DNA of 64,000 nucleotides from Dehalococcoidia bacterium (GTDB lineage Bacteria > Chloroflexota > Dehalococcoidia > Lucifugimonadales > UBA3495): positions 724,846-788,845 of the forward strand of contig OZ247427.1 of the NCBI GenBank assembly GCA_965232815.1, read 5' to 3'. Within the stretch, counting starts at the first letter, position 1. The number at the start of each line of letters is the position of its first letter. The notes under the pieces are model-generated. The model made no database searches. It was given only the letters and a program-made list of their open reading frames with translations, and was not told the DNA's origin. Shown piece after piece: positions 2,675-28,666 of this stretch. The position numbers and the translations under genes were made by a program.

Positions 2675-5600
2675 TTGTTGCAGAATCTGGCACTTCTGCT
2701 TTGGCTGCTGCCCCGACGCTTGCGTTCGGCGTGGGGGCTCTTGGCGGTGACCGCCTTTGGGGTGCTCGCCGCAGTCACTATCATGGCCCTGGGCGCCATG
2801 TATTCCCAGGCCCTGGCGGAGGCAGGACTTCGCCACGCCCTGGCCACCACTTCGCCAACGATCATCAACACGCAGGTCGTGGTGCGCAACCGGCCATTGG
2901 GACCCGAGGACTACGCAGCCCTGCGCGTCGATATTGAGGACACCATCTCATCGGACGTGGGCTACCTGATCCGGAACGTGCACCGTTACGCCAAGATGCT
3001 GCCCACCCTGCCAGTGACCCAGGCGGGCGCGCCGTATGGGGTGGATGACTCTCCCCTGGGCCGTCCTTTTTTCGTCACCGGATTCACGGAAAATACCCGG
3101 TTGGTCGATGGCCGATGGCCGTCGGATACGGTCACCAGGGACGCCGGCGGCTGCCCCAGCCAAGAGGGCGGCTGCCCCAAGATTGAAGGGGTGATGGGCG
3201 TCGACACCGCCCGCCTGCTGGGTTGGGAAGTGGGCAAAGAGACCTGGCTGGTGGTGTACGAGGGCGACGATGAGGAGGCTCCCCAGTACATTGCGGTGAC
3301 CATCGTGGGCCTCATGGAACCCATCGACCCGCGAGCCGAGTACTGGATGGGAGCGGCCGACTACTTCCGGTTTGGCGATTGGGAGGGCCGGCCGGTCGCT
3401 CCCATCTACGTGTCCGAAAACACGTACTTCAACGGCGTCGGAAAACCGTACCCCACGCTGGTCGGCGACTACGGGTGGTTCCTGTACATCATACCCGACC
3501 TGATTACCGCCGAAACTGTCCAGGACACTCGGGACAACCTCACCGCGCTGGAAACCAACATCAACGGACAATTTCCGCGTTCGTACATCCTGACCGGCCT
3601 GGAAAACAGCCGCGGGACGGGCGTGCTCGCCACCTACCAGCGCGAGTTGACCCTGGCCCGCGCGCCGTTATTCCTGTTCATATCCCTAGTGGTAGTGGTG
3701 ATCCTGTACTTCCTGGCGTTGGCGGTTGGCCTGCTGGCGGGAGCGCGATCCTCCGAATCATCGATGATGCGCAGCCGCGGCGCCAGCGTGGGTCAGATCA
3801 GCGGTTTGCTGGCCGTGGGCGAAGGTCTGCTGGTGGTGCTCGCCACCATCATTGGGCCAGTGCTGGCCTGGGGCATTGGGAACGTATTCCTCCTGGGTTC
3901 CATCAATCCCGCCGATCGGGCCGGCGTAGGGGAAACTCCGCTGGACGTGACGCTGTCCTGGCAGATGTTCGCCATGGGATCCATCGGCGGTCTGCTGAGC
4001 CTGGCGGTGCTGACCGTGGCGGGCGGGAGCCTGGCGCGTCTTGGCATACTGGACTTCCTGCGCGCCCGGGCGCGGCCACCCTCGGCCCCGTGGCTGCAGC
4101 GATACTACATCGATGTGCTTGCGGTGATCGCCCTTGGCGTATTGATCTGGCAGATCCGGCAAAGGGGCGGGTTCGTGGAAGGAACCCTGACCGGACGCGG
4201 GCCGTCGTTGGATCCATCGCTGCTGGTGGCCCCGTCTGCCGCCCTGCTCACGCTGGCTTTCCTGATGTTGCGGGCACTCCCGTGGCTGATGATTGCGACC
4301 GCGTGGGTCTCGCAGCGCCTGGCGCCGGCGTGGGTGGCGCTGTCGCTGAGGCGGATGGCTCGTTACCCGCTGCCGTATGCCTCGCTGACCGTGGTCGTAA
4401 CGCTGGCGGCTGCCCTGGGGGTCTTCGCCGGTTCGTTCCAGACCACGCTGGCCAAGAGCGAATCGGATCAGGCCAGCTACCGCACCGGCGGGGACATGGT
4501 GCTGAGCGGCGCCCGTTTCCTGGGCCGCGCTGAGAAAGATCGGCTGGAGCGGCTGCACGCCATCGAGGGAGTGGAGTCAGTGACGCCCGTGGTCCGCGAG
4601 TCAGTTGGGTTTGTGGATGGAGGAGCGCAGCGCGGGGTGGTTATGGGGGTCGACCCAATCACCATGCCCGACGCCTCCTGGTGGCGTGACGATTTCGTTG
4701 ATGGCGAACCCGTCTCGCTGGATACTCTGCTGGCTCCCCTGCGCCGCACCCTGACGCCGGAAGCATCGGGAGCGGCCCTGCCGCAAGGAACGGAACGGGC
4801 CGGGGTATGGGTGAGACGCGACGACGGACAACACGTGGGCGCGGCAGTGCCGCTGCCCTCCTACCGCCTGTGGATGCGTATCGGAAACGACCAGGGACGG
4901 TATCGCAATCTGGAGATGGGAGTATTGGCGCCGCAGTTTGGCGAGGGCGAACCGTGGCAGTATCTCTCCGCCCCGCTGGCCGGAGAACATACCATCCTGT
5001 CGCCGGACGAACGCTGGCGGGTGGTGTCCCTGCACATCTCCGGGGATACATTCTCCCGCACTCCTCCGGGCGGGCTGTCCTTTGACGATATAACCGCGGA
5101 AGGCTCCGATCTGCCGGGCGGCGCCGTGGTGGTGGAAGGTTTTGAGGAGGTTGGACCGTGGACCGCCCTCCCGCAGGGCGGCGCGGTGGCCGACCGTACC
5201 GAGCGAGTGCCGGACGCCGCGCGCTCCGGTGACGCGGGCATGTCGATCCGGTGGGAGGAACCATTGGGCCGATCGCCCAGGGGCATCGTGATCCCGCCGG
5301 GCCAGTTGCCATTGCCGGCGATCGCCGGCCCAGGATTCGAAGCTGGCCAGCGCGTACGGATAACCGTCGACGGCTACGTGGTTCCCACCAGGGTCACCGC
5401 TATCGTGAATCATTTCCCCACGCTCGACACCGGCCGTCCGTTTGTTGTGGTGTCGGCCCACGAACTGCGGGCGTGGCTGGCCCAGGCGCCCGGCGCGAAC
5501 CCAATCACGCCCGACGAGTGGTGGTTTGACATTGCGGACGATCCGAACCTGGACCGGGAAGCGGTGGCCTCGGCCATACTGGACGTCGGGTACCGTCTCT

Positions 5601-6085
5601 CATTCCTGCGCGACCGCGACGCTGCGGTGGATCTGGCGACGAGGAACCCCCTGGCCGGCGGAGCGTGGGATGCCTTGACCGCCATCGGCCTGGCTTCGCT
5701 GGCGCTGGCGGTGGGATTGGCCCTCTGCGCCCACGCTGCGGTGGCCGTACGCGAGCAGCGCATTGACCTGTCCGTGGGCGCGGCCCTTGGTTTGCCCCGC
5801 TGGCAGCGGTACGCGGGGTTGGCGATGGAGCGCGCCATCATCGGCATATTCGGCATCATCATCGGGGGCCTGGCCGGCTGGGCCCTGGCGCGCTGGACCC
5901 TGGGTGAACTGGCGAGCAACGCATCTGGCGGGCCGGTAACGCCTCCAATAGTTTTCATTGCCCAGGGGCCATGGTTGGCTGCCACGTTCCTGTGCCTCGT
6001 CATCGCGGCGGCGGCGGCCATGGCTCTGGCCGCGACTGCGGCCGGCCGGCTGCGCCCGCCTGAAGTGCTGCGGGAGACCGAGTGA
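2675..6085 (+). CDS. Large FtsX-family ABC transporter permease (two FtsX modules, large extracytoplasmic domains)
   Basis: 1136 aa. There are two TM clusters with FtsX-type signatures (..SESSMMRSRGASVGQISGLLAVGEGLL.. and ..VREQRIDLSVGAALGLPRWQRYAGLAMERAIIG..) separated by long soluble regions. The start is TTG 2675, right after an in-frame TAG. Confidence 0.8.
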   Translation: MLQNLALLLWLLPRRLRSAWGLLAVTAFGVLAAVTIMALGAMYSQALAEAGLRHALATTSPTIINTQVVVRNRPLGPEDYAALRVDIEDTISSDVGYLIRNVHRYAKMLPTLPVTQAGAPYGVDDSPLGRPFFVTGFTENTRLVDGRWPSDTVTRDAGGCPSQEGGCPKIEGVMGVDTARLLGWEVGKETWLVVYEGDDEEAPQYIAVTIVGLMEPIDPRAEYWMGAADYFRFGDWEGRPVAPIYVSENTYFNGVGKPYPTLVGDYGWFLYIIPDLITAETVQDTRDNLTALETNINGQFPRSYILTGLENSRGTGVLATYQRELTLARAPLFLFISLVVVVILYFLALAVGLLAGARSSESSMMRSRGASVGQISGLLAVGEGLLVVLATIIGPVLAWGIGNVFLLGSINPADRAGVGETPLDVTLSWQMFAMGSIGGLLSLAVLTVAGGSLARLGILDFLRARARPPSAPWLQRYYIDVLAVIALGVLIWQIRQRGGFVEGTLTGRGPSLDPSLLVAPSAALLTLAFLMLRALPWLMIATAWVSQRLAPAWVALSLRRMARYPLPYASLTVVVTLAAALGVFAGSFQTTLAKSESDQASYRTGGDMVLSGARFLGRAEKDRLERLHAIEGVESVTPVVRESVGFVDGGAQRGVVMGVDPITMPDASWWRDDFVDGEPVSLDTLLAPLRRTLTPEASGAALPQGTERAGVWVRRDDGQHVGAAVPLPSYRLWMRIGNDQGRYRNLEMGVLAPQFGEGEPWQYLSAPLAGEHTILSPDERWRVVSLHISGDTFSRTPPGGLSFDDITAEGSDLPGGAVVVEGFEEVGPWTALPQGGAVADRTERVPDAARSGDAGMSIRWEEPLGRSPRGIVIPPGQLPLPAIAGPGFEAGQRVRITVDGYVVPTRVTAIVNHFPTLDTGRPFVVVSAHELRAWLAQAPGANPITPDEWWFDIADDPNLDREAVASAILDVGYRLSFLRDRDAAVDLATRNPLAGGAWDALTAIGLASLALAVGLALCAHAAVAVREQRIDLSVGAALGLPRWQRYAGLAMERAIIGIFGIIIGGLAGWALARWTLGELASNASGGPVTPPIVFIAQGPWLAATFLCLVIAAAAAMALAATAAGRLRPPEVLRETE

Positions 6086-9000
6086 TGACCGCCATCCTGA
6101 ACCTCGGATACGTTTTGGCCCGCCGGCGACTGATGTCGTCCTTCCGGATCGAGCTAACGGTTTTGCTCGGGGTCACGCTGGCCGTGGTGCTGTTGGCCAG
6201 CGCGGTGGTATTCAACGACCTCCTGGCGGAAACCGCGCTGCGCAGAACGCTGACGGAATCCGAATCTGGCGACGTCAACATGTGGGTACGGGTGTTCAAC
6301 GACCTGGATGATCCACGCACCGCGACCGCCGCCAGTGATAGATACCGGAACGCCCAGCGATTCGTGGCACAGCGCGTGCTGCCGCCCCTGGGTGACGCCA
6401 TCGGCGCGACGTCTTTCCAGGTGGAAACCGCGACCTTCTACTTTACCGGCAAACCCAACCTCGACCTGCCCAACGACGTGCGGCCCCGAGGTCGCGTGCA
6501 GTATTTGTCCGGGTTCCAGGAGGGTAAAGGACGGTTGGTGCAAGGACGGTGGCCCGGCGTCTCCGGTGACGGCGGCTACGATGACGCCACGGGCGCCACC
6601 GACAACATAGTGATCGAAGTGGCGGTGGATCAGACCGGTTTCGAGTTCCTGGGGGTCCCGTTGGGCGAAGGATTCGGAATCATACCGGCCACAGGAGGCG
6701 ATGGGCAACCCACCACGCAGGTTGTGCTCGTGGGCATCGTCGAGCCCACCGATCGGGATGAGGAATACTGGTACCGTCGCGACAAACTGCTCTCGTATCA
6801 CGATGACGACTGGACGCTGGTACCGCTGTTTGTGTCGGAGGAGGGCCTGCGTCAGCAAATGGCGCGGCGATACCCGGGCATCTACACCAGTTCGGCGTGG
6901 TTCCTGCAGGTCGACCGCAACGGCCTGCCGGCTAAGAAGGTGGACGAGTTCCAGTTGTCCTTACGGCAGGTGCGACGCAACGTGGCAAACTTCCTGCCCA
7001 ACGGCAGCACGTCCACCGGCCTCGTAAGGATATTGGAGGACCATGAGGAACGACTCCTGCTGGCCCGCATACCGTTGTTCCTGATGGTGTTCCTGGTCAC
7101 GGGGATACTCGCGTACTACCTGACCATCACCGGCGGCATGGTGATCCGCGCCAGGGCCGCTGAAATCGCGATGTTGAAAAGCAGGGGGGCGACGACATTC
7201 CAGATTGGCGTGCTAACGTTGGTGGAGGGATTCCTTCTGGCCGTGCCGGCGGTGGTGGTCGGGGTTCTGGTATCCCCATTGTTGGCCAAGGCCCTGGGCG
7301 GTCTGGTGTTTGACGCGGCATCGTCGGGGGCGCCCGTTTCCCTCTCCTGGCAGGCGCTGGGCATGGGCGCGGCCGGCGCAGCGCTGGCGGTGCTCGTGTT
7401 GTCATTGGCGACCCTGGCGGCCGCCGGCAAGAGCATCGTCGAGTTCAGGCAGGCCGGCGCCCGGCCCGCGCAAACACCGTTCGTTCACCGGTATTACCTG
7501 GACCTGCTGGCTTTGGTTGTAATCGCGTTCCTGTGGTGGCAGATCTCCAACCGGGGAACCGTGCTCACGCGCAGCCTGGGCGGCCGAGAACTTGAGATAG
7601 ATTTCGCGTTGCTGTTGGGGCCTGCTTTGGGCCTGATCGCCCTGGGCCTGCTGGTGATGCGCTTTTTCCCCATGGCCATGGGATTGCTGTCTCGGGCGGT
7701 GGGCCCCGTGGGTCCCGGCTGGCTGGTGCAGGGCCTGCGTCACATCGCCCGCGACCCCATTGCGCCGGGCAGTCTGGTTGCCCTGCTCATGCTGGCGACC
7801 GCCCTGGGCGTGGTGGGCAGCGCGTTTTCGGCCACGTTGACGCAGAGCCTGGACGATAGAGTCCGATACGAGACGGGGGCCGACATACGCGTCCAGCACG
7901 ACGCCGGACGCATCCCGCGAGCCTATTCCGGCGCCTCCAACCTGGTGCCCAATTCCGCCGAGGTGATGCGAACCGAAGGCAGCCTCTTGACCGAGGGTTT
8001 TGGCTCGCAGCGGGTGTCGGTGCTGGGAGTGGAGTCGGAACGACTGGCCGACGTCGCATGGTGGCGAGAGGACTTCGGGGACGGAAACACTCTGCCCGAT
8101 TTGATGGCCCAGATCACCCCCAACCCGGACGCTCCGGACGGGATTCCATTGCCCGAGAACGTGACCGGTCTCTCGCTGTGGGCTCGCACCGGCGCTCTGC
8201 CGAACCGATTGATCAACGTATCGGCCCGGCTGCGAGACGACGCCGGCCGTCACTACGACATACCGATGGGAGACGTGACCGGCAGGGATTGGCAGAAACT
8301 GGAAGGGGACATCGCTCTGCGCCTGGGACGGACCGGTCGGCCCACAGAGGACGACCAGCGTCCCCGGGTGGACGTGCCGCCGCACACATTCATCAATCTG
8401 CAAATAGTGGGGCGTACCGGTGGCGACAGGCCCGGTGTGGTTTTTCTGAGTGAGTTGATCGCGCATACGCCCCAGGGCGATGTTGTGGTTGACCCGTTCA
8501 ACACCGCGGATGAGTGGACGGTGATCGAGGATTACGTCCGGCCCGGGCTCTACTCTTTCGAAACCAGCCGAAACGTCTCCCGCACCGGAACGGGCGGCTC
8601 GACCGTGTTCAGCTGGTCGCCAGGCGGAATCGGCGCGCCGGGCGTGAGACCGGGTTCCACCACGCCGCCATTGCCGGTGGTGGTCAGCCCCGAGATCCTG
8701 GACGCCGCCGGAGCAGAGGTGGGAGACACCATAAATCTCGGATTGTCCACCTTCGCCCTACCCGTGCAGATCAACGGCGTCACGGATTTCTTCCCCACCG
8801 TGGACCCGCGGGAGCAGCCGTTCGTCATCGCGGATCTGGGCGCGTTCGTGAACTATTCGAACCAGCACGGACGCCGCATTTTTGGCGGCGCGAGCGAGCT
8901 TTGGGTAGACCGTGAGATCCCGCTTGGCGATCTCACTCGGGCCCAGGCCCAAGCTGAAGCCACGGCCAACGCAATCCACAATATCGGAATAAACACCGGC

Positions 9001-9489
9001 CGCGTGATCATCGCAGAGGAGGAGGTGGCGCTGCGCGGACAGCAACCCCTGGCAAACGCCGGCTGGGGCGGATTGTTGGTTATCATGTTCCTGGCTCTCG
9101 CGCTGGCCAGCGCGACCGGCATCGCCCTGTTCTGCTGGCTGGACACACGGGAGCGCCAGACCGAGTTCGCCCTGCTGCGAACCCTGGGAAGCAGCCGGGG
9201 ACAACTCAACGCCGTGGTGTGGTTCAACCTGGCGGTGGTGGTAATCGCAGGAGTCGCGGTGGGAACGTGGGCCGGCGCGCAGATCGGCGCAGCCCTCCTG
9301 CCGGTGCTCGAAGTAGCCGAGGGCGGAGTGCGCGCCACCCCGCCGCTAACCTTTGAGACCGACTGGCGGATGTTGGCGCTGGCCTACGCGGTGCTGGCGG
9401 TGGTCAGCATTGTGTCCGTGATCTGGCTGGCCTATGTGACCGGACGGCTGGAAGTCCAACGGGTGCTGCGAGCCGGCGAGGGCGGCTGA
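6082..9489 (+). CDS. Large FtsX-family ABC transporter permease, paralogue of the upstream gene
   Basis: 1135 aa. There is a 4-nt ATGA overlap with the upstream stop. FtsX signatures are ..RAAEIAMLKSRGATTFQIGVLTLVEGFLL.. and ..TRERQTEFALLRTLGSSRGQLNAVVWFNLAVV... Confidence 0.8.
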   Translation: MMTAILNLGYVLARRRLMSSFRIELTVLLGVTLAVVLLASAVVFNDLLAETALRRTLTESESGDVNMWVRVFNDLDDPRTATAASDRYRNAQRFVAQRVLPPLGDAIGATSFQVETATFYFTGKPNLDLPNDVRPRGRVQYLSGFQEGKGRLVQGRWPGVSGDGGYDDATGATDNIVIEVAVDQTGFEFLGVPLGEGFGIIPATGGDGQPTTQVVLVGIVEPTDRDEEYWYRRDKLLSYHDDDWTLVPLFVSEEGLRQQMARRYPGIYTSSAWFLQVDRNGLPAKKVDEFQLSLRQVRRNVANFLPNGSTSTGLVRILEDHEERLLLARIPLFLMVFLVTGILAYYLTITGGMVIRARAAEIAMLKSRGATTFQIGVLTLVEGFLLAVPAVVVGVLVSPLLAKALGGLVFDAASSGAPVSLSWQALGMGAAGAALAVLVLSLATLAAAGKSIVEFRQAGARPAQTPFVHRYYLDLLALVVIAFLWWQISNRGTVLTRSLGGRELEIDFALLLGPALGLIALGLLVMRFFPMAMGLLSRAVGPVGPGWLVQGLRHIARDPIAPGSLVALLMLATALGVVGSAFSATLTQSLDDRVRYETGADIRVQHDAGRIPRAYSGASNLVPNSAEVMRTEGSLLTEGFGSQRVSVLGVESERLADVAWWREDFGDGNTLPDLMAQITPNPDAPDGIPLPENVTGLSLWARTGALPNRLINVSARLRDDAGRHYDIPMGDVTGRDWQKLEGDIALRLGRTGRPTEDDQRPRVDVPPHTFINLQIVGRTGGDRPGVVFLSELIAHTPQGDVVVDPFNTADEWTVIEDYVRPGLYSFETSRNVSRTGTGGSTVFSWSPGGIGAPGVRPGSTTPPLPVVVSPEILDAAGAEVGDTINLGLSTFALPVQINGVTDFFPTVDPREQPFVIADLGAFVNYSNQHGRRIFGGASELWVDREIPLGDLTRAQAQAEATANAIHNIGINTGRVIIAEEEVALRGQQPLANAGWGGLLVIMFLALALASATGIALFCWLDTRERQTEFALLRTLGSSRGQLNAVVWFNLAVVVIAGVAVGTWAGAQIGAALLPVLEVAEGGVRATPPLTFETDWRMLALAYAVLAVVSIVSVIWLAYVTGRLEVQRVLRAGEGG

Positions 9490-9546
9490 CGCCAGCGCGT
9501 CTAGTCCGGCAATCGCACCCTATTCGCGTCGCCATCGCGCCGGAGA

Positions 9547-10446
9547 CTAAACCAGACCCAGGCTGCGGCACATCTCCAGCATCGCCTTGGCGGTTTCCTC
9601 GTGGGCCACGTCAACCATGTCGCCGGCGTACGTAACGGCGGCAGTGCCCAGCCTCCGGCTTTCATCCATTGCGTCCAGCAGGCCTTGCCAGAACGCGATT
9701 TCCTCGGGCGATGGCGTGAATATCTCGTTCACGATGGGCACATGGGACGGGTGGATCAGGTGCATCCCGGTATAGCCCAGCGCCTTAAGATTGTTGGCCC
9801 AGAACCGCAGTCCGTCGAGGTCGCGGATGTCGAACCAGCCGCCGCTTATGGGCCACTGTATGCCGGCGGCGCGGCTGTCAATGAGCACCTTGCTCCGTAG
9901 ATACAGAGTCTCCGCTCCCTCCAGGGTCCAGCGGTAACCGACGCTCCTTGCGGTGTCGCCGCCCTTCCCGCCGCTGCCGCCCATGTGGGCCACGCGGTCC
10001 GATGCCATGGCGATGTCGTAGGCCATGCGGATGCCCGAGGCGGTTTCCAACCCGGGGTCGATGCAGACGGTGTTCAGTTCCATGCCCGCCTTGCGCTCGA
10101 AATACCGCAGCAGCACGTCTGCCTCCACCACGTCGGCCGGCGACTCCACCTTGGGCAGCAGGATTCCGTACAGGCCGGGCCGGGTCACCGCTTCCAGATC
10201 GAATCCGGTCAGTCCGGTTTCCAGCCGATTGACGCGTACGAACAGCGTCTGGCCGCGTTCCGAAAGTTCGTCGATCATCCTGGCCACCACCGGACGGGCG
10301 GCGTCCTTGTCATACTCCGGCACCGAGTCTTCCAGGTCTAGGATGAGCGCGTCCGGACCGTACTGGGGCGCCTTGCGCATCCAGTCCTCCTTGTTGCCAG
10401 GGACGAACATGACGGAGCGCAGGGGTTTCGTGGTGATGCGTGGCAT
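9547..10446 (-). CDS. HpcH/HpaI aldolase / citrate lyase beta (CitE)-like, malyl-CoA-lyase-type enzyme
   Basis: The motif RSVMFVPGNKEDWMRKAPQYGPDALILDLEDSV is a typical CitE-family N-terminus. The start is ATG 10446 with GGAGGA 9 nt upstream; the ORF track start 10479 is less likely. Confidence 0.8.
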   Translation of the reverse strand: MPRITTKPLRSVMFVPGNKEDWMRKAPQYGPDALILDLEDSVPEYDKDAARPVVARMIDELSERGQTLFVRVNRLETGLTGFDLEAVTRPGLYGILLPKVESPADVVEADVLLRYFERKAGMELNTVCIDPGLETASGIRMAYDIAMASDRVAHMGGSGGKGGDTARSVGYRWTLEGAETLYLRSKVLIDSRAAGIQWPISGGWFDIRDLDGLRFWANNLKALGYTGMHLIHPSHVPIVNEIFTPSPEEIAFWQGLLDAMDESRRLGTAAVTYAGDMVDVAHEETAKAMLEMCRSLGLV

Positions 10447-12297: not shown

Positions 12298-13656
12298 TCA
12301 GATTATCTCGTATATCGACCCATGATTGGGAAGGAAAAACTTGGCGTAGGTCTTTTGGGCGTAGTCGTCAGTCATTCCGGAGATATAGTCGGCAACCCTC
12401 CTTGCACGCTCCCTTTCGCTAGTATCTGATCCCAACCCGTCCTGCCAGTCATCGGGCAAAAAATGGTATTCGTCAAAAAATTTCTTGAACAAAGCCCGGA
12501 TGATATATTTCCCTTTAGCTTCCAAAACCCGTACTTGCGGGGCTGTAATGACAAAATACCAGATTATTTTGTTGACCAAATCAATCTCAATTTCTTTGTC
12601 CCTTGGCATTTCGACGTTGTACAGATAGCGCGATGATACGCAATTAGAAACCCGATGCTCCACACGAACACGTTCCGCAGCGGTAACATATCGGTGGATC
12701 AGTTTCGTAGTCATCTCTTTACGGAATGCACGCTGATTATCGTAGTCGAATTTGCTAGCATTAGTTGTAATACTGGGATTAAATTCATATAGCATTTCAA
12801 CTACATCATTATACAAACTATCAATATCTTCGTCCTCAAATTCAAGTTTCAGGTCTCGCAATACACGCGACATGCGCGTATCGCTACGGGAAAATGTAAA
12901 AGCGTCGATATATTTTGCATGGAGCCCGTCTTCAAGATCGTGAACCGCATAGGCGATATCGTCAGCTTGATTCATAATTTGGCATTCAAAGGAACGCGCT
13001 TTAGCTTCATCGCAACCAGCTTCGATTCGAGCGTCGTGACTTGCCCAGTCGGCGAATGGAAGATCATCGGCGTAAATGAATTTCCTGAAATTTTCATAAG
13101 GAGCGTTTTTGTACTTGAGTTGGGCGTCGATTACTGCCCTCGTTAGGTTGAGACCATGGTATGCAGTGCTTTTCTTTTCGAGCTCATTTATCAAACGAAC
13201 ATTCTGAGCGTTAGCCTCGAATCCGCCATAATTGACCATCAGTTTTTTGAGTTCATCTTCTCCGGCATGTCCAAATGGAGGATGCCCGATATCGTGGAGC
13301 AACGCAGCTGCTTCAACTAATTCAGTATTAGCCCCCAGCCGGAGGGCCAACCCTTTGGCGATCTGCCCAACTTCCAGAGAATGAGTTAACCGCGTTCGGT
13401 AGAAATCACCCTCGCCCGATGTGAAAACTTGAGTCTTGCCTTGCAGACGACGAAACGCGGCAGAGTGAATAATGCGCGCCCGATCCCGTTCGAATTCAGA
13501 CCTTTCCTCATCATCCGATTTAGGCCCTTCGCAGATTCTGCGTTCTTTATCGTGCGCCGTATATTTGATACTGTCAGGTTCAATCGAATTTCGCACGTCC
13601 GGATACCTCGCATTCCTTGGTTTAGAACTGGTAGACTTGCGCTGGTTAGAAATCAT
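12298..13656 (-). CDS. dGTPase-family HD-domain dNTP triphosphohydrolase (Dgt-like)
   Basis: RSEFERDRARIIHSAAFRRLQGKTQVF..RTRLTHSLEVGQIAKGLA..AALLHDIGHPPFGHAGE and the C-terminal ADYISGMTDDYA are hallmark Dgt-family motifs. The gene is strongly AT-richer than its neighbours (37 G+C per 100 nt at 12541-12640). Confidence 0.85.
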   Translation of the reverse strand: MISNQRKSTSSKPRNARYPDVRNSIEPDSIKYTAHDKERRICEGPKSDDEERSEFERDRARIIHSAAFRRLQGKTQVFTSGEGDFYRTRLTHSLEVGQIAKGLALRLGANTELVEAAALLHDIGHPPFGHAGEDELKKLMVNYGGFEANAQNVRLINELEKKSTAYHGLNLTRAVIDAQLKYKNAPYENFRKFIYADDLPFADWASHDARIEAGCDEAKARSFECQIMNQADDIAYAVHDLEDGLHAKYIDAFTFSRSDTRMSRVLRDLKLEFEDEDIDSLYNDVVEMLYEFNPSITTNASKFDYDNQRAFRKEMTTKLIHRYVTAAERVRVEHRVSNCVSSRYLYNVEMPRDKEIEIDLVNKIIWYFVITAPQVRVLEAKGKYIIRALFKKFFDEYHFLPDDWQDGLGSDTSERERARRVADYISGMTDDYAQKTYAKFFLPNHGSIYEII

Positions 13657-20472: not shown

Positions 20473-20943
20473 ATGACATTTGAACAACAGATGGAACAAT
20501 TCTCCATGGCACACATCCGAGCTGTGGCGGCCCGGGCAGGTTACCAGCTGACCAGGGATGAAACGGATACCGGATTGGACGGCACATTGAAGGGCGACGG
20601 CCCAGGCCGGCCCAGGATCGATTTCCAAGCGAAATCAACTTCTGTTGACATCCGAATAGATGGCCATCTGCACTTCCCATTGCCCGTGCACAACTACGAC
20701 ATACTCCGTGATACGAATGCCGTATCGCCTTCCATCTTGATTGTTGTGCTGATCCCACGCGACGAAAGCGAATGGACCACGCAGACTACGGAACAACTTT
20801 GCCTGCGCCATTGCGCTTATTGGCTTTCACTGGAAGGTCAACCACCCGTGCCCAACACAACCAGCATTACCGTCCATGTTCCGGTTGGCAACGTATTCAA
20901 CAGTGATCAATTGCAGTTGTTGATGAACCAGAGTATCGGGTAG
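20473..20943 (+). CDS. DUF4365-type PD-(D/E)xK (restriction-endonuclease-fold) protein
   Basis: 156 aa. The pattern E..F.MAHIRAVAARAGY......TDTGLDGTL....G....IDFQAKST.. followed by ..PSILIVVLIP fits DUF4365 (D-x-G-hD ... hQxK). GC is lower (50 per 100 nt at 20641-20740). Confidence 0.65.
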   Translation: MTFEQQMEQFSMAHIRAVAARAGYQLTRDETDTGLDGTLKGDGPGRPRIDFQAKSTSVDIRIDGHLHFPLPVHNYDILRDTNAVSPSILIVVLIPRDESEWTTQTTEQLCLRHCAYWLSLEGQPPVPNTTSITVHVPVGNVFNSDQLQLLMNQSIG

Positions 20944-22083
20944 GTGAATGTCATGCAGGTGACAATACGCGACCGAGGAGCCTTGGAATCTCTGTCCGTG
21001 CTAGGTGTTCGCGCCTATCTCAGTTCGCGCGGCTGGGTTAGTGATGGCCCGTGGGGACGTCGCAGACTGGCGACCGTTTACCTGAAAGAACAGGGTGGAA
21101 AAACCTGGGACTTGGTAGTGCCGAATCTGGACACTGTCACAGATTACGCCAGGCGAATTCTTGAGATCGTGGACACGTTGGCACGTGTCGAAGAACGTCC
21201 ACAATTAGACGTATTTTACGACCTCAAGAATGCGGGCGGCGACATAATCCGGTTGACCGCGAGGAACGGAAAATTCGACCAAGAAATGTCATTGAAAGAC
21301 AGCGCCGATCTACTAAACGACGCTTACGATATGCTCGTTGCCGCGGCGCGTTCCGTCGAAAACCCCCAGGCTGTTCACCGTGGCCGGATCAGTTCAGACG
21401 TCGCCGAATACCTGGACGCGGTCCGTCCCATGCCGCACCAATTCGACAGCTACGCCTTGGCCTTGCATTCGCCGGCTCCCATCGGCGTCGGCGAGCAGCA
21501 TGATATGGGCGACGTGTACCACATCCCTTTTGCCCGCCGGGCCACCCTGCAACTGAGTCGCGCTCTGCAATCAACCATCGACGCCGTGGGCGAAGCCATC
21601 GCCGAGGACACGATGGAACCGTTCCAACGCGCTGTGTCCGCTGGTGTCAGCGCCAATTTATGCAGTTCTGTTGCGGGGCTCGCGGAACATGGTCACGGTA
21701 TCGAGATCAGCCTGAATTGGGCACAAACTCGACCGGCAACAGTTCCCAGCCACCTCTACCCGTTCAGCGAAAACTCTGCGGGAATACTACGCGACGCAGC
21801 CGCGGACTTTCGGCGGAATGAACCGTCTTCCGCCGAGTTGATCACTGGCCACATCGCAAGGTTGGAAAGAGAGAAGCCGGATGAGTTTGACGGCAAAGCC
21901 GTCATACTGTCTGTGCGCGATGAACGTCAAATCCGCATCCACGTGGAATTCGCAGAACCGGACTTCGTCAGGGTAATCCAGGCGTTCCGGGATCTGTCCC
22001 GCATCAGCGTCACCGGGGACGTACACAGGGAGGGCAACACTTTTGCATTGCACAATCCACGCAACCTGACGTTGCACGAATAG
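20944..22083 (+). CDS. Hypothetical 379-aa protein, partner of the DUF4365 gene
   Basis: GTG 20944 directly abuts the upstream TAG, and there is an in-frame ATG at 20953. The frame is long and clean with coding-like composition. I can recognise no TM segment, no Walker A and no known catalytic motif. Confidence 0.6.
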   Translation: MNVMQVTIRDRGALESLSVLGVRAYLSSRGWVSDGPWGRRRLATVYLKEQGGKTWDLVVPNLDTVTDYARRILEIVDTLARVEERPQLDVFYDLKNAGGDIIRLTARNGKFDQEMSLKDSADLLNDAYDMLVAAARSVENPQAVHRGRISSDVAEYLDAVRPMPHQFDSYALALHSPAPIGVGEQHDMGDVYHIPFARRATLQLSRALQSTIDAVGEAIAEDTMEPFQRAVSAGVSANLCSSVAGLAEHGHGIEISLNWAQTRPATVPSHLYPFSENSAGILRDAAADFRRNEPSSAELITGHIARLEREKPDEFDGKAVILSVRDERQIRIHVEFAEPDFVRVIQAFRDLSRISVTGDVHREGNTFALHNPRNLTLHE

Positions 22084-24865: not shown

Positions 24866-25294
24866 GTGCTATATTCCAAACTGATCATCCGCATCCCGAG
24901 GTTCTTCCCATTGCTTTACGAAGTCGAAGTCGTTGCTGACGGCAACAGTCCCATGGATCTCAACCGCGTGTTCGACCTGCTGACGGACCCTCGATCCGTG
25001 CTGCGTATCGTCGCGCCCGACCCCATGGGCAACGACGTGTGGTGCGATGTGGTCGGATGGGAAGATGGCGCGCCGTGCCCGGCCATGGCCGCGCTGTCCG
25101 AGGACTCGGGCGAGGGAGTGATCATGCTGATCTACGGCGGTGAGGATGGTATCCGCCTCAGGCCGGCCGATGATACGTCCGGATGGGACACCGACGCCTC
25201 AAACCAATGGGGCGAAGCCTGCCTGATGCTCGGCAGCGATGTGGTGATCGAATACGCTCCGACGGACTGGGACTATTCCCAGCACCCGCACTGA
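24866..25294 (+). CDS. Hypothetical small acidic protein
   Basis: ORF with GTG 24866; an alternative ATG 24953 gives MDLNRVFDLLTD... The product is Trp/Asp-rich. I recognise no family. Confidence 0.4.
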   Translation: MLYSKLIIRIPRFFPLLYEVEVVADGNSPMDLNRVFDLLTDPRSVLRIVAPDPMGNDVWCDVVGWEDGAPCPAMAALSEDSGEGVIMLIYGGEDGIRLRPADDTSGWDTDASNQWGEACLMLGSDVVIEYAPTDWDYSQHPH

Positions 25295-25303
25295 CCGGCG
25301 CGA

Positions 25304-26593
25304 CTAGCCACCGGCCTCCGCGCCATCCTCACCAGGAGCGTCGGGCCACGGTTCCTCGACGGGCTTGACATCGGCGGTCAGCGTCGCCAGCACCCTGGGC
25401 ACATCCCGCCGGTATCCGCCCTTGCCGTCCTTGCGGGGCCGTAGGCGCGCCCCCGGCCCACCGTGCAACCGCTGAAATGCCTCATCGTCCGACGCCGGCG
25501 GGCTGCACAGGCTATCGTCCAGTTCGATTGCCGCAATGTACACCCGGCGCGCCGCTGATTCAGTCTGCCGTTGCATTATCTCGCGGTACAAGCGCCAACA
25601 CGCGGGACTCTCCAGCGCTGCGCCCGAGCAGACCAGCGCGACCCGGTCGTAGTTGCGGAACCGGTTCATCGGCGGGATCACCTGCGAGTTGTAGATGGTC
25701 TCCTCATCGTCCGCCAGCAGGCTCCAGCATTGCAGGCCGCGTTGGCGCAACTCGTCCTGCAACCACACGGTGATGTTGGCGTCCACCGTCGACCCGATCA
25801 GCAGGACCCTGCGATGCGGCGTTTCGCTCTGGTGCGGTTGAGCGTGTCCGTTGATGAAATCTGGCGGCACGCCGGCGGACAGCAGGAAAATCTCCGGCAA
25901 TCGAGCGCCCGACCTCGCCAGGGTATCCGCGCCCACAATGCTCGGTCCCTCGTGGCGCAGGGTTTCCAACCCCAGCACTTCGCTCAGATCACAATCCGCG
26001 AAGAGCGTCATGTCCACCACGACATCCTCAAGCAGCGTGCGGCCCAGACGAGTGCGCACCAACGTGGTGTTCCGGAGGTCGCAACGGGTCAGGTTGGCAA
26101 CGTCGAGGCAGGTGGCGGTCAGGCGCGCTCCGCTCAGGTTGGCGTCGGTGAGGTCAGACATGGTGAGGTCGGCCTCGGAGAGATCTGCTCCCGCCAAATT
26201 CGCTCCCACCAGCGTCGAAAAGCCCATATCGCAGTTGGTGAGGTTCGCGCCTCGCAGGTCGGCGTTGTTGAGGTTGCTGCCGCGCAGGTCCGACCGGGTG
26301 AACACGGCGCCCGACGCGTGGGAATCCTCAAAACTCGCGCGAATCAGGTTACAACGGGTCAGGTGCGCTTCGTGCATCCGCGCCCCGGTGAACTTGCCGT
26401 GGCGCAGGTCCGCCGAAGTGAGGTCAATTTGCGTCAGGTCGTCGAAAGAGAAATCAACGCCCGGCATCCGAACGCCACTGAAATACCCGCCCGACAGGTC
26501 GAGGTGGGCACGTTCCTGAAAGAATGTAGCGCGCCAGCGAGCTATGGCAAAGGCTCGCCTCTTGGCGACGGCGACATGCTCGGGGTTGGCCAA
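25304..26593 (-). CDS. Pentapeptide-repeat protein with a C-terminal TIR-like domain
   Basis: Residues about 30-215 are A(D/N)LxX pentapeptide repeats (..ADLRGANLTNCDMGFSTLVGANLAGADLSEADLTMSDLTDANLSGARL..). A linker follows (GPSIVGADTLARSGARLPEIFLLSAGVPPDF), then RRVLLIGSTVDANITVWLQDELRQRGLQCWSL...YDRVALVCSGAALESPACWRLYREI...RVYIAAIELDD. That last region fits a TIR beta-alpha pattern. Confidence 0.6.
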   Translation of the reverse strand: MANPEHVAVAKRRAFAIARWRATFFQERAHLDLSGGYFSGVRMPGVDFSFDDLTQIDLTSADLRHGKFTGARMHEAHLTRCNLIRASFEDSHASGAVFTRSDLRGSNLNNADLRGANLTNCDMGFSTLVGANLAGADLSEADLTMSDLTDANLSGARLTATCLDVANLTRCDLRNTTLVRTRLGRTLLEDVVVDMTLFADCDLSEVLGLETLRHEGPSIVGADTLARSGARLPEIFLLSAGVPPDFINGHAQPHQSETPHRRVLLIGSTVDANITVWLQDELRQRGLQCWSLLADDEETIYNSQVIPPMNRFRNYDRVALVCSGAALESPACWRLYREIMQRQTESAARRVYIAAIELDDSLCSPPASDDEAFQRLHGGPGARLRPRKDGKGGYRRDVPRVLATLTADVKPVEEPWPDAPGEDGAEAGG

Positions 26594-26625
26594 TCCACTA
26601 CTCCGCTCCAGAGACTGCGACTCAG

Positions 26626-27795
26626 CTAATCGTCCCCACCTACCAGCGCGGCCTCCCGGCCGGAAAACTCGGGCATCACTTCGGACGAGAAGATCGACAA
26701 CTGATCCTTGAACTCACTCCACGGCATTCCCTCGGGCCACTGGAGCACGATGTCCTCCAACCCCGGGTACTTCTCCTCGGTCTCCCGCAGGAAGTCGATG
26801 AAGTCGCCGGGCGAGCCGCAGAACCAGGCTTTCTGCGCGACGCCGTCCTCAACGCGTGGAGTGCGCGCCGGCGCGCCGGGCGTTCCCCATGGCCGGCCCT
26901 GTTCGTCGGTGTACCGCACGAATCCAAAGGGCGCGAACCACTTGTATCGCTCGTCGTGGAAGGGGCGGACCCGCTCGATGGCTTCCTCCCGGCTGCCGGC
27001 AATGTAGAAGCCGAAGCCCAGGGCCATGTCGCCGCCCAACGGGATGTCGCGGCCGGCGGCCACCGCGGCAGAGTGATACTGGGAGATCATCTGCTCGGCG
27101 TACAGTTCGCCGGTGAGGGCCACCATGGCCTTGATGCCGCGCTCGGCGATGTAATTCAGCGTGCGCCCGCTGGCGATGGGCTGCCAGATCTCCACTGGTT
27201 TATTCACCGGCCGCGGCACCATCGTGATTTCTTTCAGGTCGTAGCCGCGATAGGGTACGGTCGGCGGGATGGTGTAGTACTTGCCCTGGTGGCTCCAGGA
27301 CTCCTCGTTGAACGCCTTGAGGATGACCTCCATCTGCTCCAGGAACAACTCACGGTTGGCGTCGTTGTCGATCACCGGGGACCCGAACGTCTCAACCTCG
27401 CGGGAGTGGTAGCCGCGGCCGACGCCGAAAATCATCCGGCCGCCGGTCAGGATGTCTGCCATCGCGAAGTCCTCGGCGATGCGCAGCGGATGCCACATCG
27501 GGATGATGTTGAAGGCCTGCCCGAATTTCAGGTTCTTGGTCTGTCCGGCCAGGTGCACGCCCATGAGGATCAGGTTGGGGATGCACTCGTAGCCCTCGTG
27601 CTGGAAGTGGTGCTCGGCCATCCACATGCAGTAGAAACCGCGCTCGTCCATGTGCTGGGCCAGCGCCTGGGCGTGGTCGTATGCCTGGGCCAACTGCTCG
27701 TTGGAGTAGCGACGCTGGTCGGGTGGCGTGCCGTCCGCGCCGACGTTATCCAGGTCAATCTGCCCCACGTACAAAACCGAAAACCGCTTAATCAT
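26626..27795 (-). CDS. LLM-class (luciferase-like) flavin-dependent oxidoreductase
   Basis: MIKRFSVLYVGQ..., ..FYCMWMAEHHFQHEGYE.IPN.., ..GRMIFGVGRGYH.REVETFG.. are typical of the LLM family. Confidence 0.8.
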   Translation of the reverse strand: MIKRFSVLYVGQIDLDNVGADGTPPDQRRYSNEQLAQAYDHAQALAQHMDERGFYCMWMAEHHFQHEGYECIPNLILMGVHLAGQTKNLKFGQAFNIIPMWHPLRIAEDFAMADILTGGRMIFGVGRGYHSREVETFGSPVIDNDANRELFLEQMEVILKAFNEESWSHQGKYYTIPPTVPYRGYDLKEITMVPRPVNKPVEIWQPIASGRTLNYIAERGIKAMVALTGELYAEQMISQYHSAAVAAGRDIPLGGDMALGFGFYIAGSREEAIERVRPFHDERYKWFAPFGFVRYTDEQGRPWGTPGAPARTPRVEDGVAQKAWFCGSPGDFIDFLRETEEKYPGLEDIVLQWPEGMPWSEFKDQLSIFSSEVMPEFSGREAALVGGDD

Positions 27796-27952: not shown

Positions 27953-28666
27953 ATGACCACCGCCAAGACACCCAAATCGCAAAGCCGTTTCCGCTTGCCC
28001 GATCCGCCGGATCATCCCGACGACAAGATGATCAGTTTCAAGCAGCTAGCTGCGACCGGCCACGCCCATCATCTGGCCCGGCATTTAGGCGATCCTGAAA
28101 CCACCCTGGTCGCCGGCGAACGGTACGTGGTGGTGCGGCCTACCCAAAGCATGGCCGGTAGCCACTATCCTGACCTTCTGGTGGCGTTTGGCGTAGACCC
28201 ATTAGCCTACGAGGCCAGCAACGGATACATCATCGAGGAGCAGGGGAAGCCGCCGGACTTCGTACTCGAGATAGCATCCCGGCGCACTGGGCAAAACGAT
28301 GTGGGTGAAAAGCGCGATGCCTACGCGGCTCTGGATATTCCTGAATATTGGCGTTTTGACGAAACAGGAGAGTCCCACGGAACACGGTTGGCAGGTGACC
28401 GGCTGGTCGGAGACGAATACGTGCCCATACCCATCGAGGAAGCGGCTAGCAACGTGTTGCAGGGATATAGCGCGGCGCTGAACCTGAACTTGCGCTGGGA
28501 GGGCGGCGTCCTTGGCTGGTACGATCCCGACACCGGTCGGCACATCCCCACCTTCGATGGCGAACGCGCCAAAGCAGCTGAGGCCTCGACTCGCGCCGAC
28601 CAAGCCGAGGCCCGCGTGCGTGAACTGGAAGCAGAACTGCGTCGCCTCCGCGATTCGTCGGGTTAG
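27953..28666 (+). CDS. Uma2-family (DUF820) PD-(D/E)xK endonuclease with coiled-coil C-terminal extension
   Basis: ..SHYPDLLVAFGV.., ..KPPDFVLEIASRRT...D...K...YAALDIPEYWRFD.. is the Uma2 core. The C-terminus is RADQAEARVRELEAELRRLR. Confidence 0.75.
   Translation: MTTAKTPKSQSRFRLPDPPDHPDDKMISFKQLAATGHAHHLARHLGDPETTLVAGERYVVVRPTQSMAGSHYPDLLVAFGVDPLAYEASNGYIIEEQGKPPDFVLEIASRRTGQNDVGEKRDAYAALDIPEYWRFDETGESHGTRLAGDRLVGDEYVPIPIEEAASNVLQGYSAALNLNLRWEGGVLGWYDPDTGRHIPTFDGERAKAAEASTRADQAEARVRELEAELRRLRDSSG

Follow-up and report, generated by a model that had tools for sequence, protein, structure and literature searches.

Bacterial TIR domains are usually taken for NAD+-consuming immune effectors. 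A gene that joins pentapeptide repeats to a TIR-like domain, lying in a 64-kb stretch of Dehalococcoidia DNA (the whole of which is called the window here), raises the question of whether its product is such an effector or whether the domain serves some other purpose.

Gene organization

The open reading frame is real and occupies the minus strand with exactly the bounds and length first reported for it (Table 1). Its start codon is TTG, and the orthologues all align from residue 1. A shorter start at M43, as in P0001, P0002, P0004 and P0005, was rejected because residues 1–42 are kept in all orthologues and a ribosome-binding site precedes the TTG. The gene encodes, in order, an N-terminal helix, pentapeptide repeats, a linker, a domain of TIR fold and an acidic, disordered tail. 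No RNA genes turned up when the 64-kb window was scanned with Rfam and for tRNAs.

Table 1. Features of the pentapeptide-repeat/linker/TIR-like gene and of its immediate neighbours (window coordinates)
Feature	Position	Strand	Details or basis
Complete CDS, pentapeptide-repeat/linker/TIR-like protein	25304..26593	-	429 aa + stop; ORF list, orthologue alignment
Shine-Dalgarno-like GGAG	26601..26604	-	7 nt 5' of TTG, inside 32-nt spacer; sequence reading
Basic N-terminal helix, residues 1–30	26504..26593	-	pI 11.8; AF2 helix at residues 4–24
Pentapeptide-repeat beta-helix, residues 31–205	25979..26503	-	35 repeats, ~8.75 coils, net charge -9
Family-specific linker RHEGPSIVGADTLARSGARLPEIFLLSAGVPPDFI, residues 206–257	25823..25978	-	Column conservation, 153 relatives
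TIR-fold domain, residues 258–406	25376..25822	-	TIR_2, canonical-only profile, AF2, PDB folds; dN/dS 0.13
D295-D296-E297 codons, clade-specific acidic motif	25703..25711	-	End of bB/start of BB loop
Codon of L335, homologous to AbTir catalytic E208	25589..25591	-	hmmalign and hmmsearch alignments with AbTir, PdTIR
Disordered acidic Pro/Gly/Glu tail, residues 407–429	25307..25375	-	pLDDT <50, pI 4.05, dN/dS 0.37
Luciferase-like (LLM) oxidoreductase, upstream, co-directional	26626..27795	-	PF00296 E=1e-42; stop codon 26626–26628
Small convergent gene, 127 aa	24911..25294	+	TTG start, GAGG ribosome-binding site; alignment A2, 51 invariant columns

Pentapeptide repeats, linker and tail

The original prediction described about 180 residues of A(D/N)LxX repeats, and this description holds: the five-residue register runs without a break through all 35 repeats. 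They match PF00805 in eight stretches (E=9.6e-41; 137.4 bits, cut-off 20.2), and a sequence search matched solved pentapeptide structures in the PDB down to an E-value of 2.5e-23. The AF2 model places a beta bridge at each fifth residue from 32 to 177, giving a right-handed quadrilateral beta-helix, with pLDDT values of ~81–86 over most of residues 31–140 that drop to 55–73 by 141–180. The repeat domain has a dN/dS of 0.08. The preceding helix, which is kept among the orthologues (dN/dS 0.11), probably caps the beta-helix, as the model suggests. At the other end of the protein, the tail noted as Pro/Gly/Glu-rich is indeed acidic and Pro/Gly-rich over residues 411–429, is disordered in the model and is the least constrained part of the protein.

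The stand-alone proteins MfpA, Qnr, Np275/276, HetL and Alr5209 likewise form right-handed quadrilateral beta-helices from A(D/N)LxX repeats. MfpA and Qnr are DNA mimics, and the acidic charge of the repeat domain resembles theirs. The window repeats nevertheless fall far under every NCBIfam equivalog cut-off (for Qnr, 46 bits against 240) and the window protein showed no evidence of an association with topoisomerases. The stand-alone proteins, moreover, lack the C-terminal linker and TIR domain that are present here.

The linker, GPSIVGADTLARS...LPEIFL..AGVP, had been remarked upon as conserved-looking. It proved to be the part of the pentapeptide-TIR family that is most widely conserved, with H214 found in 145, P217 in 140, S218 in 144, T224 in 144, S228 in 146, F236 in 149 and G241 in 150 of the 153 aligned relatives. 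The motif of the whole family reads H-x-GPS-x-IG-x-DT-x-x-S...IP-x-x-FL-x-x-GVP, of which the window protein carries H214, G216, P217, S218, D223, T224, S228, P233, F236, L237, G241, V242 and P243. No Pfam family matched residues 206–257.

The TIR-fold domain

The C-terminal region had been called a divergent TIR domain, and HMM, profile and fold searches agree in that call: the protein joins its pentapeptide repeats to a true TIR-fold domain. TIR_2 (PF13676) matches the full protein with 26.5 bits (E=1e-5), just under the 28-bit gathering threshold, and the isolated domain with 29.3 bits (E=1.3e-6), above it. With a profile built from canonical relatives only, the window domain aligns over its whole length (47.9 bits). 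The family profile also matches AbTir (2.7e-11) and PdTIR (1.2e-9), as well as TcpB, the SPARTA TIR, RUN1 and L6. The AF2 model of the domain (pLDDT 86.2, pTM 0.83) was made from an input alignment that held canonical TIR domains and so biased it towards the TIR fold. It bears out the predicted strand-helix order, beta-alpha-beta-alpha, with five strands (bA 262–267, bB 288–293, bC 317–322, bD 352–358 and bE 381–384) and helix aC at residues 330–345. When this model was compared with the PDB using Foldseek, the best folds were the TIR domains of L6, RPS4, RUN1, TcpB, SPARTA and TLR15 (TM 0.6–0.64, E from 7e-4).

Flavodoxins were also among the fold matches, with weaker scores (E ~3e-3, TM ~0.5), and no flavodoxin family matched in Pfam even at E<=10. 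The original prediction had noted that GST replaces the usual SYS, and the relatives do have (Y/H)S(S/H) at that site. A flavodoxin/FMN reading of this GST was rejected: T269 occurs in the window protein only, the consensus of its clade being GS(V/Y), and the flavodoxin HMM match is absent.

Among characterized proteins the domain is most usefully set beside the TIR_2 NADases AbTir (7UWG/8G83), PdTIR (3H16) and TcpB/BtpA (4LQC), which the family profile matches at 1e-8 to 3e-11. Common to both are the order of strands and helices, D271 (the aA cap), W290 (in bB), D295 and D316. The window domain differs from them in having A331 and L335 for the WxxxE residues, GS(T/V) for the bA-aA 'SH/SYS' and an extra invariant D296-E297, and in being fused to a pentapeptide beta-helix. 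The TIR domains of animal TLR, MyD88 and MAL do not hydrolyse NAD+ and act by TIR-TIR assembly. Structures of MAL and TLR TIRs are among the fold and profile matches of the window domain; no specific sequence kinship to the animal adaptors was detected beyond the TIR superfamily, and the window protein, unlike them, is prokaryotic and beta-helix-fused.

The pentapeptide-linker-TIR family

The family to which the protein belongs comprises 1017 clusters at 50% identity (match E<=1e-3), and TIR_2 was matched by 41 of 45 sampled members. Its canonical members, annotated 'hypothetical protein', have the three modules and the linker motif in common with the window protein; they keep the FISYS motif and strong TIR and TIR_2 matches, and glutamate occupies the catalytic column in 117 of the 153 aligned family members. 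The three canonical loci inspected adjoin toxin-antitoxin or defence-type genes: one holds two copies in tandem, flanked by VapBC and ParE and beside smpB, the second adjoins HepT/MNT and ParE, and the third a further pentapeptide protein and DUF6602. PADLOC matches of canonical relatives (PDC-S66, SAVED-TIR and ThsB) come via the TIR domain alone. We infer that the canonical members are NAD+-cleaving abortive-infection proteins. The linker plus TIR region found no match on plasmids by tblastn.

The window protein belongs to a glutamate-less group with a D-D-E motif, which forms a monophyletic clade within this family in a midpoint-rooted neighbour-joining tree. In contrast to the canonical members, with their toxin-type neighbours and occasional tandem copies, this clade is single-copy and, within one lineage, syntenic.

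Loss of the catalytic motif

Residues equivalent to the WxxxE motif were located with MAFFT and with an ungapped hmmalign alignment to a profile made from canonical relatives, AbTir and PdTIR only. Both place A331 at the position of AbTir W204 and L335 at that of E208, the catalytic glutamate of AbTir, whose substitution in E208A abolishes activity (bioRxiv 10.1101/2023.05.19.541320). In the orthologues the catalytic column contains L, Y, F, S or H and never E (77/77 sequences), and the W and E of WxxxE are both absent from every one of them. To our knowledge, all known TIR enzymes require that glutamate for NAD+ cleavage.

The W-x4-E element that the original prediction considered retained is literally there, as W333 and E338, but out of register with the TIR WxxxE by +2 and +3 positions, respectively. 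W333, two positions off, gives way to Ser in 24 of the 77 orthologue sequences and to Ala in one. The alignment of the catalytic glutamate, on which the original prediction had staked its enzymatic reading, thus went against it. Judged from these alignments, the TIR domain is very unlikely to be a canonical NADase.

Other residues have become fixed in the clade. L264, W290, D295, E297, D316, C322 and R334 are invariant across the 77 orthologue sequences, and D296 is missing from only one of them (76/77), whereas canonical relatives mostly have L, A or M at position 296 and K, E or R at 297. Position 338 is E or D in 73 of the 77, one helical turn past the canonical catalytic position. E338 was considered as a relocated catalytic glutamate and set aside, since a salt bridge to the invariant R334, at i/i+4 spacing, is the simpler explanation. 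Loss of the canonical glutamate is not proof that catalysis is gone: D295-D296-E297, C322, R334 and E/D338 could form another active or binding site on that face of the domain.

Genomic context and inheritance

Eighty Dehalococcoidia species genomes, retrieved via the small neighbouring gene (A2), were compared. The order SDR, LLM, pentapeptide-TIR and small gene is found in 71 of them; it is the order in the window and in loci L001–L006, L088 and L089. Locus L001 also carries a CAP12-PCTIR TIR gene. The LLM protein is 68–98% identical between loci, and at the deepest split it is still 72–77% identical, against 28–36% for the TIR-like domain. The pentapeptide-TIR gene is lost in about nine of the 80 genomes. 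It is a long-resident, single-copy, vertically inherited gene of SAR202-like Dehalococcoidia and does not look like an island gene.

The small convergent gene, whose stop lies 9 nt from the pentapeptide-TIR stop, is present in 186 Dehalococcoidia species genomes and has no match in Pfam, NCBIfam, the PDB or PADLOC. It was rejected as an obligate partner or antitoxin, since it stays in genomes that lack the pentapeptide-TIR gene. The family profile was also used to look for another TIR gene close by that might act as catalytic partner, and it found none in the window or in the 80 flanks.

The flanks are insertion-prone, and the window contains the candidate defence genes PDC-M02A/B (20.5–22.1 kb) and Uma2 (28 kb). 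Given candidate defence genes within a few kilobases, an immune-related role, for example as sensor or adaptor, may be considered. PADLOC-DB 2.0 gave no significant match to the window protein, the sole one being a partial match to Aga_REase-TIR (E=0.005, 13.5 bits).

Possible functions

Loss of the glutamate, together with a fixed and vertically inherited locus, points to a repurposed immune-type module and not to an active single-gene defence effector. The reading that we favour, while giving it roughly even chances, is that of a domesticated immune-type module which serves as a non-catalytic TIR-fold scaffold or ligand-binding module and not as an active sensor-effector. The product is a cytoplasmic protein of three modules in which the basic helix probably caps the acidic quadrilateral beta-helix, followed by the linker and the TIR fold. 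The lineage has lost both WxxxE residues as well as the bA 'FISYS' and has gained the invariant D-D-E on the ligand-binding face, and the gene has turned into a fixed single-copy vertical resident just downstream of the LLM oxidoreductase. The TIR-like domain would no longer hydrolyse NAD+; it may instead have a regulatory role without catalysis, associating with itself or binding a ligand, and be coupled to the binding target of the beta-helix, possibly a nucleic-acid-binding protein. A bolder version, which we hold to be rather doubtful, is that the whole lineage domesticated an abortive-infection-type pentapeptide-TIR gene as a housekeeping gene and rebuilt the pocket around D-D-E, Cys and Arg for a new chemistry or ligand, possibly linked to the LLM oxidoreductase. 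Such a rebuilt pocket, if real, would be a prokaryotic case in which a TIR domain has evolved a function other than that of an NADase.

The original prediction had offered an NAD-consuming single-gene sensor-effector, an offer that the missing glutamate of all 77 orthologue sequences and the fixed chromosomal residence of the gene speak against. It may be recast with a relocated acid (E338 or D295-D296-E297) that cleaves NAD+ or a related nucleotide while the beta-helix senses the invader. The invariant acids would suit this, lying just past the C-terminal end of bB, which is the ligand face by flavodoxin/TIR topology, and so would the E or D kept at 338, although an ordinary intrahelical salt bridge can account for the latter. 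The strong constraint on the domain (dN/dS 0.13) is likewise what an enzyme would show; the W and E of the motif are nonetheless gone from every orthologue, a change of that glutamate alone being enough to kill AbTir. Finally, the canonical relatives resemble defence or toxin genes and candidate defence genes lie close by in the window, but the locus itself is fixed, syntenic, single-copy and vertical down to <30% domain identity, which is atypical of abortive-infection effectors, and PADLOC yielded only its one partial match. An enzymatic effector of this kind is unlikely.

A partner of the upstream LLM oxidoreductase, encoded in one operon with it and using a TIR fold repurposed for a nicotinamide or flavin cofactor or for regulation of the enzyme, is very unlikely. 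In all 78 loci the two genes are co-oriented, separated by a median of 39 nt (<=60 nt in 43), the 32-nt gap originally reported for the window was confirmed, no terminator-like site occurs in the spacer and the adjacency is kept at the deepest divergence sampled. The co-transcription suggested earlier is therefore plausible. It is not obligatory, in that four genomes have Uma2 insertions separating the genes and LLM is kept where the pentapeptide-TIR gene is cleanly missing (L064, L071, L073, L077, L082 and L085). LLM has also evolved far more slowly than the TIR-like domain, so that tight co-evolution is not evident. The flavodoxins among the fold matches would fit a cofactor role, but they are surpassed by TIR domains in TM-score and lack any counterpart in Pfam, and the partnership leaves the pentapeptide domain without a role.

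That the gene is a decaying, pseudogene-like remnant of a past defence gene, functionless now, would explain its lost catalytic residues, its faster evolution than the neighbouring genes, its absence from some genomes and its occasional frameshifted copies (L005, P0010, P0011 and P0023), but is almost certainly wrong, with a full-length intact ORF in 77 of 78 loci, the clade-specific residues invariant and a dN/dS of 0.08–0.15 in all structured modules (against 0.37 for the tail), on which a pseudogene was rejected. In the 'decayed TIR scaffold' put forward earlier, scaffold thus comes closer to our reading, whereas 'decayed' is wrong because the ORF is intact, selection on the domain is purifying (median dN/dS 0.13) and new invariant residues have become fixed.

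The non-catalytic, domesticated module that we favour concerns a clear TIR homologue which has lost its catalytic motif across a lineage and yet is kept by purifying selection in an unchanging chromosomal position; it counsels caution against the automatic annotation of bacterial TIR domains as defence effectors. The pentapeptide-linker-TIR family is large (>1000 clusters) and experimentally uncharacterised, a search of the literature having found no experimental study of a pentapeptide-TIR protein. Within it, the glutamate-bearing island form and the glutamate-less resident make up a natural pair of the same architecture, from which the role of bacterial TIR folds without enzymatic activity may be learned.

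Architecture of the protein

The pentapeptide-TIR gene starts with TTG, preceded at 7 nt by a GGAG sequence that lies within the 32-nt spacer following the TAG stop of the luciferase-like oxidoreductase (LLM) gene. The long N-terminus is genuine; since all orthologues align from residue 1 onward and residues 1–30 are under purifying selection (dN/dS 0.11), the start at M43 given in some database entries is probably wrong.

The original prediction had described pentapeptide repeats, a conserved-looking linker, a divergent TIR domain and a Pro/Gly/Glu-rich tail, and this description proved correct. The repeats match Pfam Pentapeptide (137 bits, E=9.6e-41) and solved pentapeptide proteins (down to 2.5e-23); their five-residue register is unbroken over residues 31–205 (35 repeats), and the domain is acidic, with a net charge of -9 in the window protein and an orthologue median of -9. 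No Pfam model covered the linker when the window protein was scanned. It is the family's most widely conserved segment, H214 being present in 145, S218 in 144, T224 in 144, S228 in 146, F236 in 149 and G241 in 150 of 153 relatives. The tail is acidic, Pro/Gly-rich, disordered in the structure model and weakly constrained.

TIR_2 matched the full protein with 26.5 bits (E=1e-5) and the isolated C-terminal domain with 29.3 bits, over the 28-bit cut-off. An exhaustive phmmer search with residues 203–429 returned 1017 clusters at 50% identity (E<=1e-3), nearly all with an N-terminal region of 150–250 aa followed by the linker and a TIR-like domain; among 45 sampled family domains, TIR_2 matched 41, TIR 26 and ThsB_TIR 18. 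A profile of the family domain matched the solved structures of AbTIR (2.7e-11) and PdTIR (1.2e-9), together with those of TcpB, TIR-STING, Cat1, SPARTA TIR-APAZ, L6 and RUN1. A second profile, made from canonical members only (pentapeptide-linker-TIR proteins that keep the catalytic WxxxE glutamate), covers the window domain at positions 3–143 of 145 (47.9 bits). The AlphaFold2 model of residues 258–410, built from an alignment that included canonical TIR domains, has a five-stranded beta/alpha topology (mean pLDDT 86.2, pTM 0.83). Its best Foldseek matches in the PDB are the TIR domains of L6, RPS4/RRS1, RUN1, TcpB, SPARTA and TLR15 (TM 0.60–0.64), with flavodoxins and receiver domains ranking behind them (TM about 0.5). 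By both homology and fold, the C-terminal domain is a TIR domain.

Catalytic motif

Helix C of AbTir carries the WxxxE motif, with W204 and the catalytic E208; the E208A substitution abolishes NADase activity (bioRxiv 10.1101/2023.05.19.541320). The register was taken from two concordant alignments, a MAFFT alignment of 153 relatives and an hmmalign alignment to the canonical-only profile that included AbTIR and PdTIR. Since the strand C to helix C segment aligns without gaps (LVCSGAALESPACWRLYREI versus VVLSTDFIKKDWTNYELDGL), W204 corresponds to A331 and E208 to L335 of the window protein. The W-x4-E element that the original prediction took to be retained (W333 and E338) is out of register with WxxxE by +2 and +3, and the catalytic glutamate, whose conservation the original prediction had proposed to check by alignment, is absent. 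Glu occupies this column in 117 of the 153 relatives but in none of the window protein's 77 orthologue sequences, where the residue is L (51), Y (16), F (5), S (4) or H (1). The canonical TIR catalytic machinery is absent: the protein belongs to both the TIR superfamily and the pentapeptide-repeat family but lacks the catalytic features that define TIR NADases.

Other residues have become invariant. The bA motif reads LL(I/V)GS in the window clade (the glutamate-less Dehalococcoidia orthologues) as against (F/C)IS(Y/H)S in canonical members. L264, W290, D295, E297, D316, C322 and R334 are fixed in 77/77 orthologues, D296 is found in 76 and E or D at 338 in 73; D296 and E297 are specific to the clade, canonical members having L/A/M and K/E/R there. 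From the fold topology, S268 and D271 (after bA), D295–E297 (after bB), C322 (end of bC), and R334 and E338 (first turns of aC) would share the side of the domain on which TIR enzymes hold NAD+. That the domain is still enzymatic through a relocated acid is possible, if rather doubtful; the conservation of E338 has a mundane explanation, in that its i/i+4 spacing from R334 could account for it by a salt bridge.

Locus and inheritance

In all loci found through the protein itself (the related loci L001–L006, L088 and L089 in other genomes, with TIR-like domains 24–68% identical to that of the window), the gene order is SDR (opposite strand), LLM, the pentapeptide-TIR-like gene and a convergent gene of 115–127 aa. 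The alignment of this small gene has 51 invariant columns, and its product has conserved Cys and Trp residues (e.g. QWGE.CLML) and no match in Pfam, NCBIfam, PDB or PADLOC. The GTG start at 24866 chosen by the ORF finder is probably wrong, the TTG at 24911 being likelier.

The small gene was used as an independent probe against one genome per GTDB species, giving 186 matches, of which 80 loci were kept, all from Dehalococcoidia or Chloroflexota MAGs (one a 'SAR202 cluster bacterium'). The pentapeptide-TIR-like gene is directly convergent to it, with LLM upstream, in 71/80. In L064, L071, L073, L077, L082 and L085 it is cleanly absent, since LLM abuts the small gene (68–310 nt apart); rearrangements affect L016, L051 and L079. 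LLM and the pentapeptide-TIR gene are co-directional in 78/78 loci, separated by <=60 nt in 43, 60–300 nt in 31 and about 0.85–1 kb in four, in which a Uma2 gene is inserted between them. That the pentapeptide-TIR protein partners the co-directional LLM enzyme, by binding a cofactor or by regulation, is unlikely, as the LLM gene persists without the pentapeptide-TIR gene and Uma2 genes intervene between the two.

Across the deepest divergence, LLM keeps 72–77% identity to its window counterpart, the small gene 60–66%, the linker about 50%, the repeats 34–45% and the TIR-like domain 28–36%. The pentapeptide-TIR gene has thus long been part of the lineage and changes more rapidly than the genes around it. 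When 150 family members are placed in a midpoint-rooted neighbour-joining tree, all 19 glutamate-less D-D-E sequences group into a single clade, whose sole extra member is a frameshift-corrupted entry. The gene is not decaying, since the ORF is intact in 77/78 orthologue loci and median pairwise dN/dS (410 pairs, dS 0.15–1.0) is low (repeats 0.08, linker 0.15, TIR-like domain 0.13, tail 0.37); these values contradict a functionless remnant, which is hardly credible.

Orthologue copies in L005 (5280..6564) and in the database entries P0010, P0011 and P0023 are split or frameshifted, either inside the TIR-like region or immediately ahead of it; several are from MAGs assembled from long reads, and assembly indel error or a true pseudogene are alike possible. 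In the more distant Dehalococcoidia (L002, L003, L088), a second LLM paralogue and a gamma-glutamyltranspeptidase gene follow the block in place of the M16 peptidase, and several LLM paralogues occur within 20 kb.

Defence-type genes

Genes of the locus and defence-type genes in the window
Gene	Position	Strand	Product (aa)	Remarks
dGTPase	12298..13656	-	452	PADLOC dGTPase, E=1.9e-124; Pfam HD and HD_assoc
PDC-M02 component A	20473..20943	+		PADLOC, E=9.6e-49
PDC-M02 component B	20944..22083	+		PADLOC, E=1.5e-98
Small convergent gene	24911..25294	+	127	TTG start; stop 9 nt from pentapeptide-TIR stop
Pentapeptide-TIR	25304..26593	-	429	TTG start
LLM	26626..27795	-
Uma2-family putative endonuclease	27953..28666	+		Between LLM and SDR; weak PADLOC PDC-S03 match, 7.8e-12

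The dGTPase gene, which was probably acquired horizontally and would act against phages by depleting dNTPs, lies in the window's only low-GC stretch (0.497 at 12–14 kb, about 0.63 elsewhere). The abutting PDC-M02 pair, a PADLOC candidate defence system, is separated from the pentapeptide-TIR gene by about 3 kb and stands just past the M16 peptidase; the B protein, the one of the two scanned against Pfam, had no match. Uma2 lies between LLM and the pentapeptide-TIR gene in four other genomes (L004, L048, L053, L055), and its differing positions around the locus suggest that Uma2 genes are mobile. In L001 the SDR–LLM gap carries, in place of Uma2, an insertion (4169..8527) with a 958-aa protein (no Pfam match), a CAP12-PCTIR TIR-like gene and an Asp_protease_2 gene, and for this reason the gap beside the conserved block seems to be a hot spot where defence-type cargo varies.

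Canonical relatives and proposed function

Three canonical loci, all with the glutamate intact, were compared at the DNA level. L087 has tandem pentapeptide-TIR paralogues (8001..10070) between VapBC and ParE, adjoining smpB; L090 and L091 have one copy beside a HepT/MNT pair and RHH-ParE; and in L092 (7001..9393) the copy has as neighbours another pentapeptide protein, DUF6602 and an ISP_coupler protein. Each of the three loci has the look of a variable island. Canonical relatives match PADLOC solely through generic TIR models (PDC-S66, SAVED-TIR, ThsB, Aga-TIR) and are labelled 'hypothetical protein' in source databases. Full-text literature searches found no characterisation of a pentapeptide-TIR fusion, pentapeptide repeats being mentioned merely as variable modules in conflict systems.

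Ancestrally, the family probably served abortive infection as one protein, sensing through its beta-helix and cleaving NAD+ through its TIR domain, and it would have been domesticated in the SAR202-like lineage. There the TIR-like domain would have lost canonical NAD+ hydrolysis and most likely become a self-association or ligand-binding regulatory module on the acidic beta-helix; the latter could be a nucleic-acid mimic that docks onto a protein binding DNA or RNA. To such a module, joined to a nucleic-acid-mimicking beta-helix, we give about an even chance; the probability left over by this and the alternatives belongs to functions not yet imagined.

The window protein represents a variant, within an uncharacterised fusion family, that lacks the glutamate throughout its lineage. 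To a specialist, a bacterial TIR that is catalytically dead would not in itself be surprising; the interest lies in the natural contrast between an island-borne, glutamate-bearing form and a glutamate-less form at a fixed locus, and in the size of this unstudied family.
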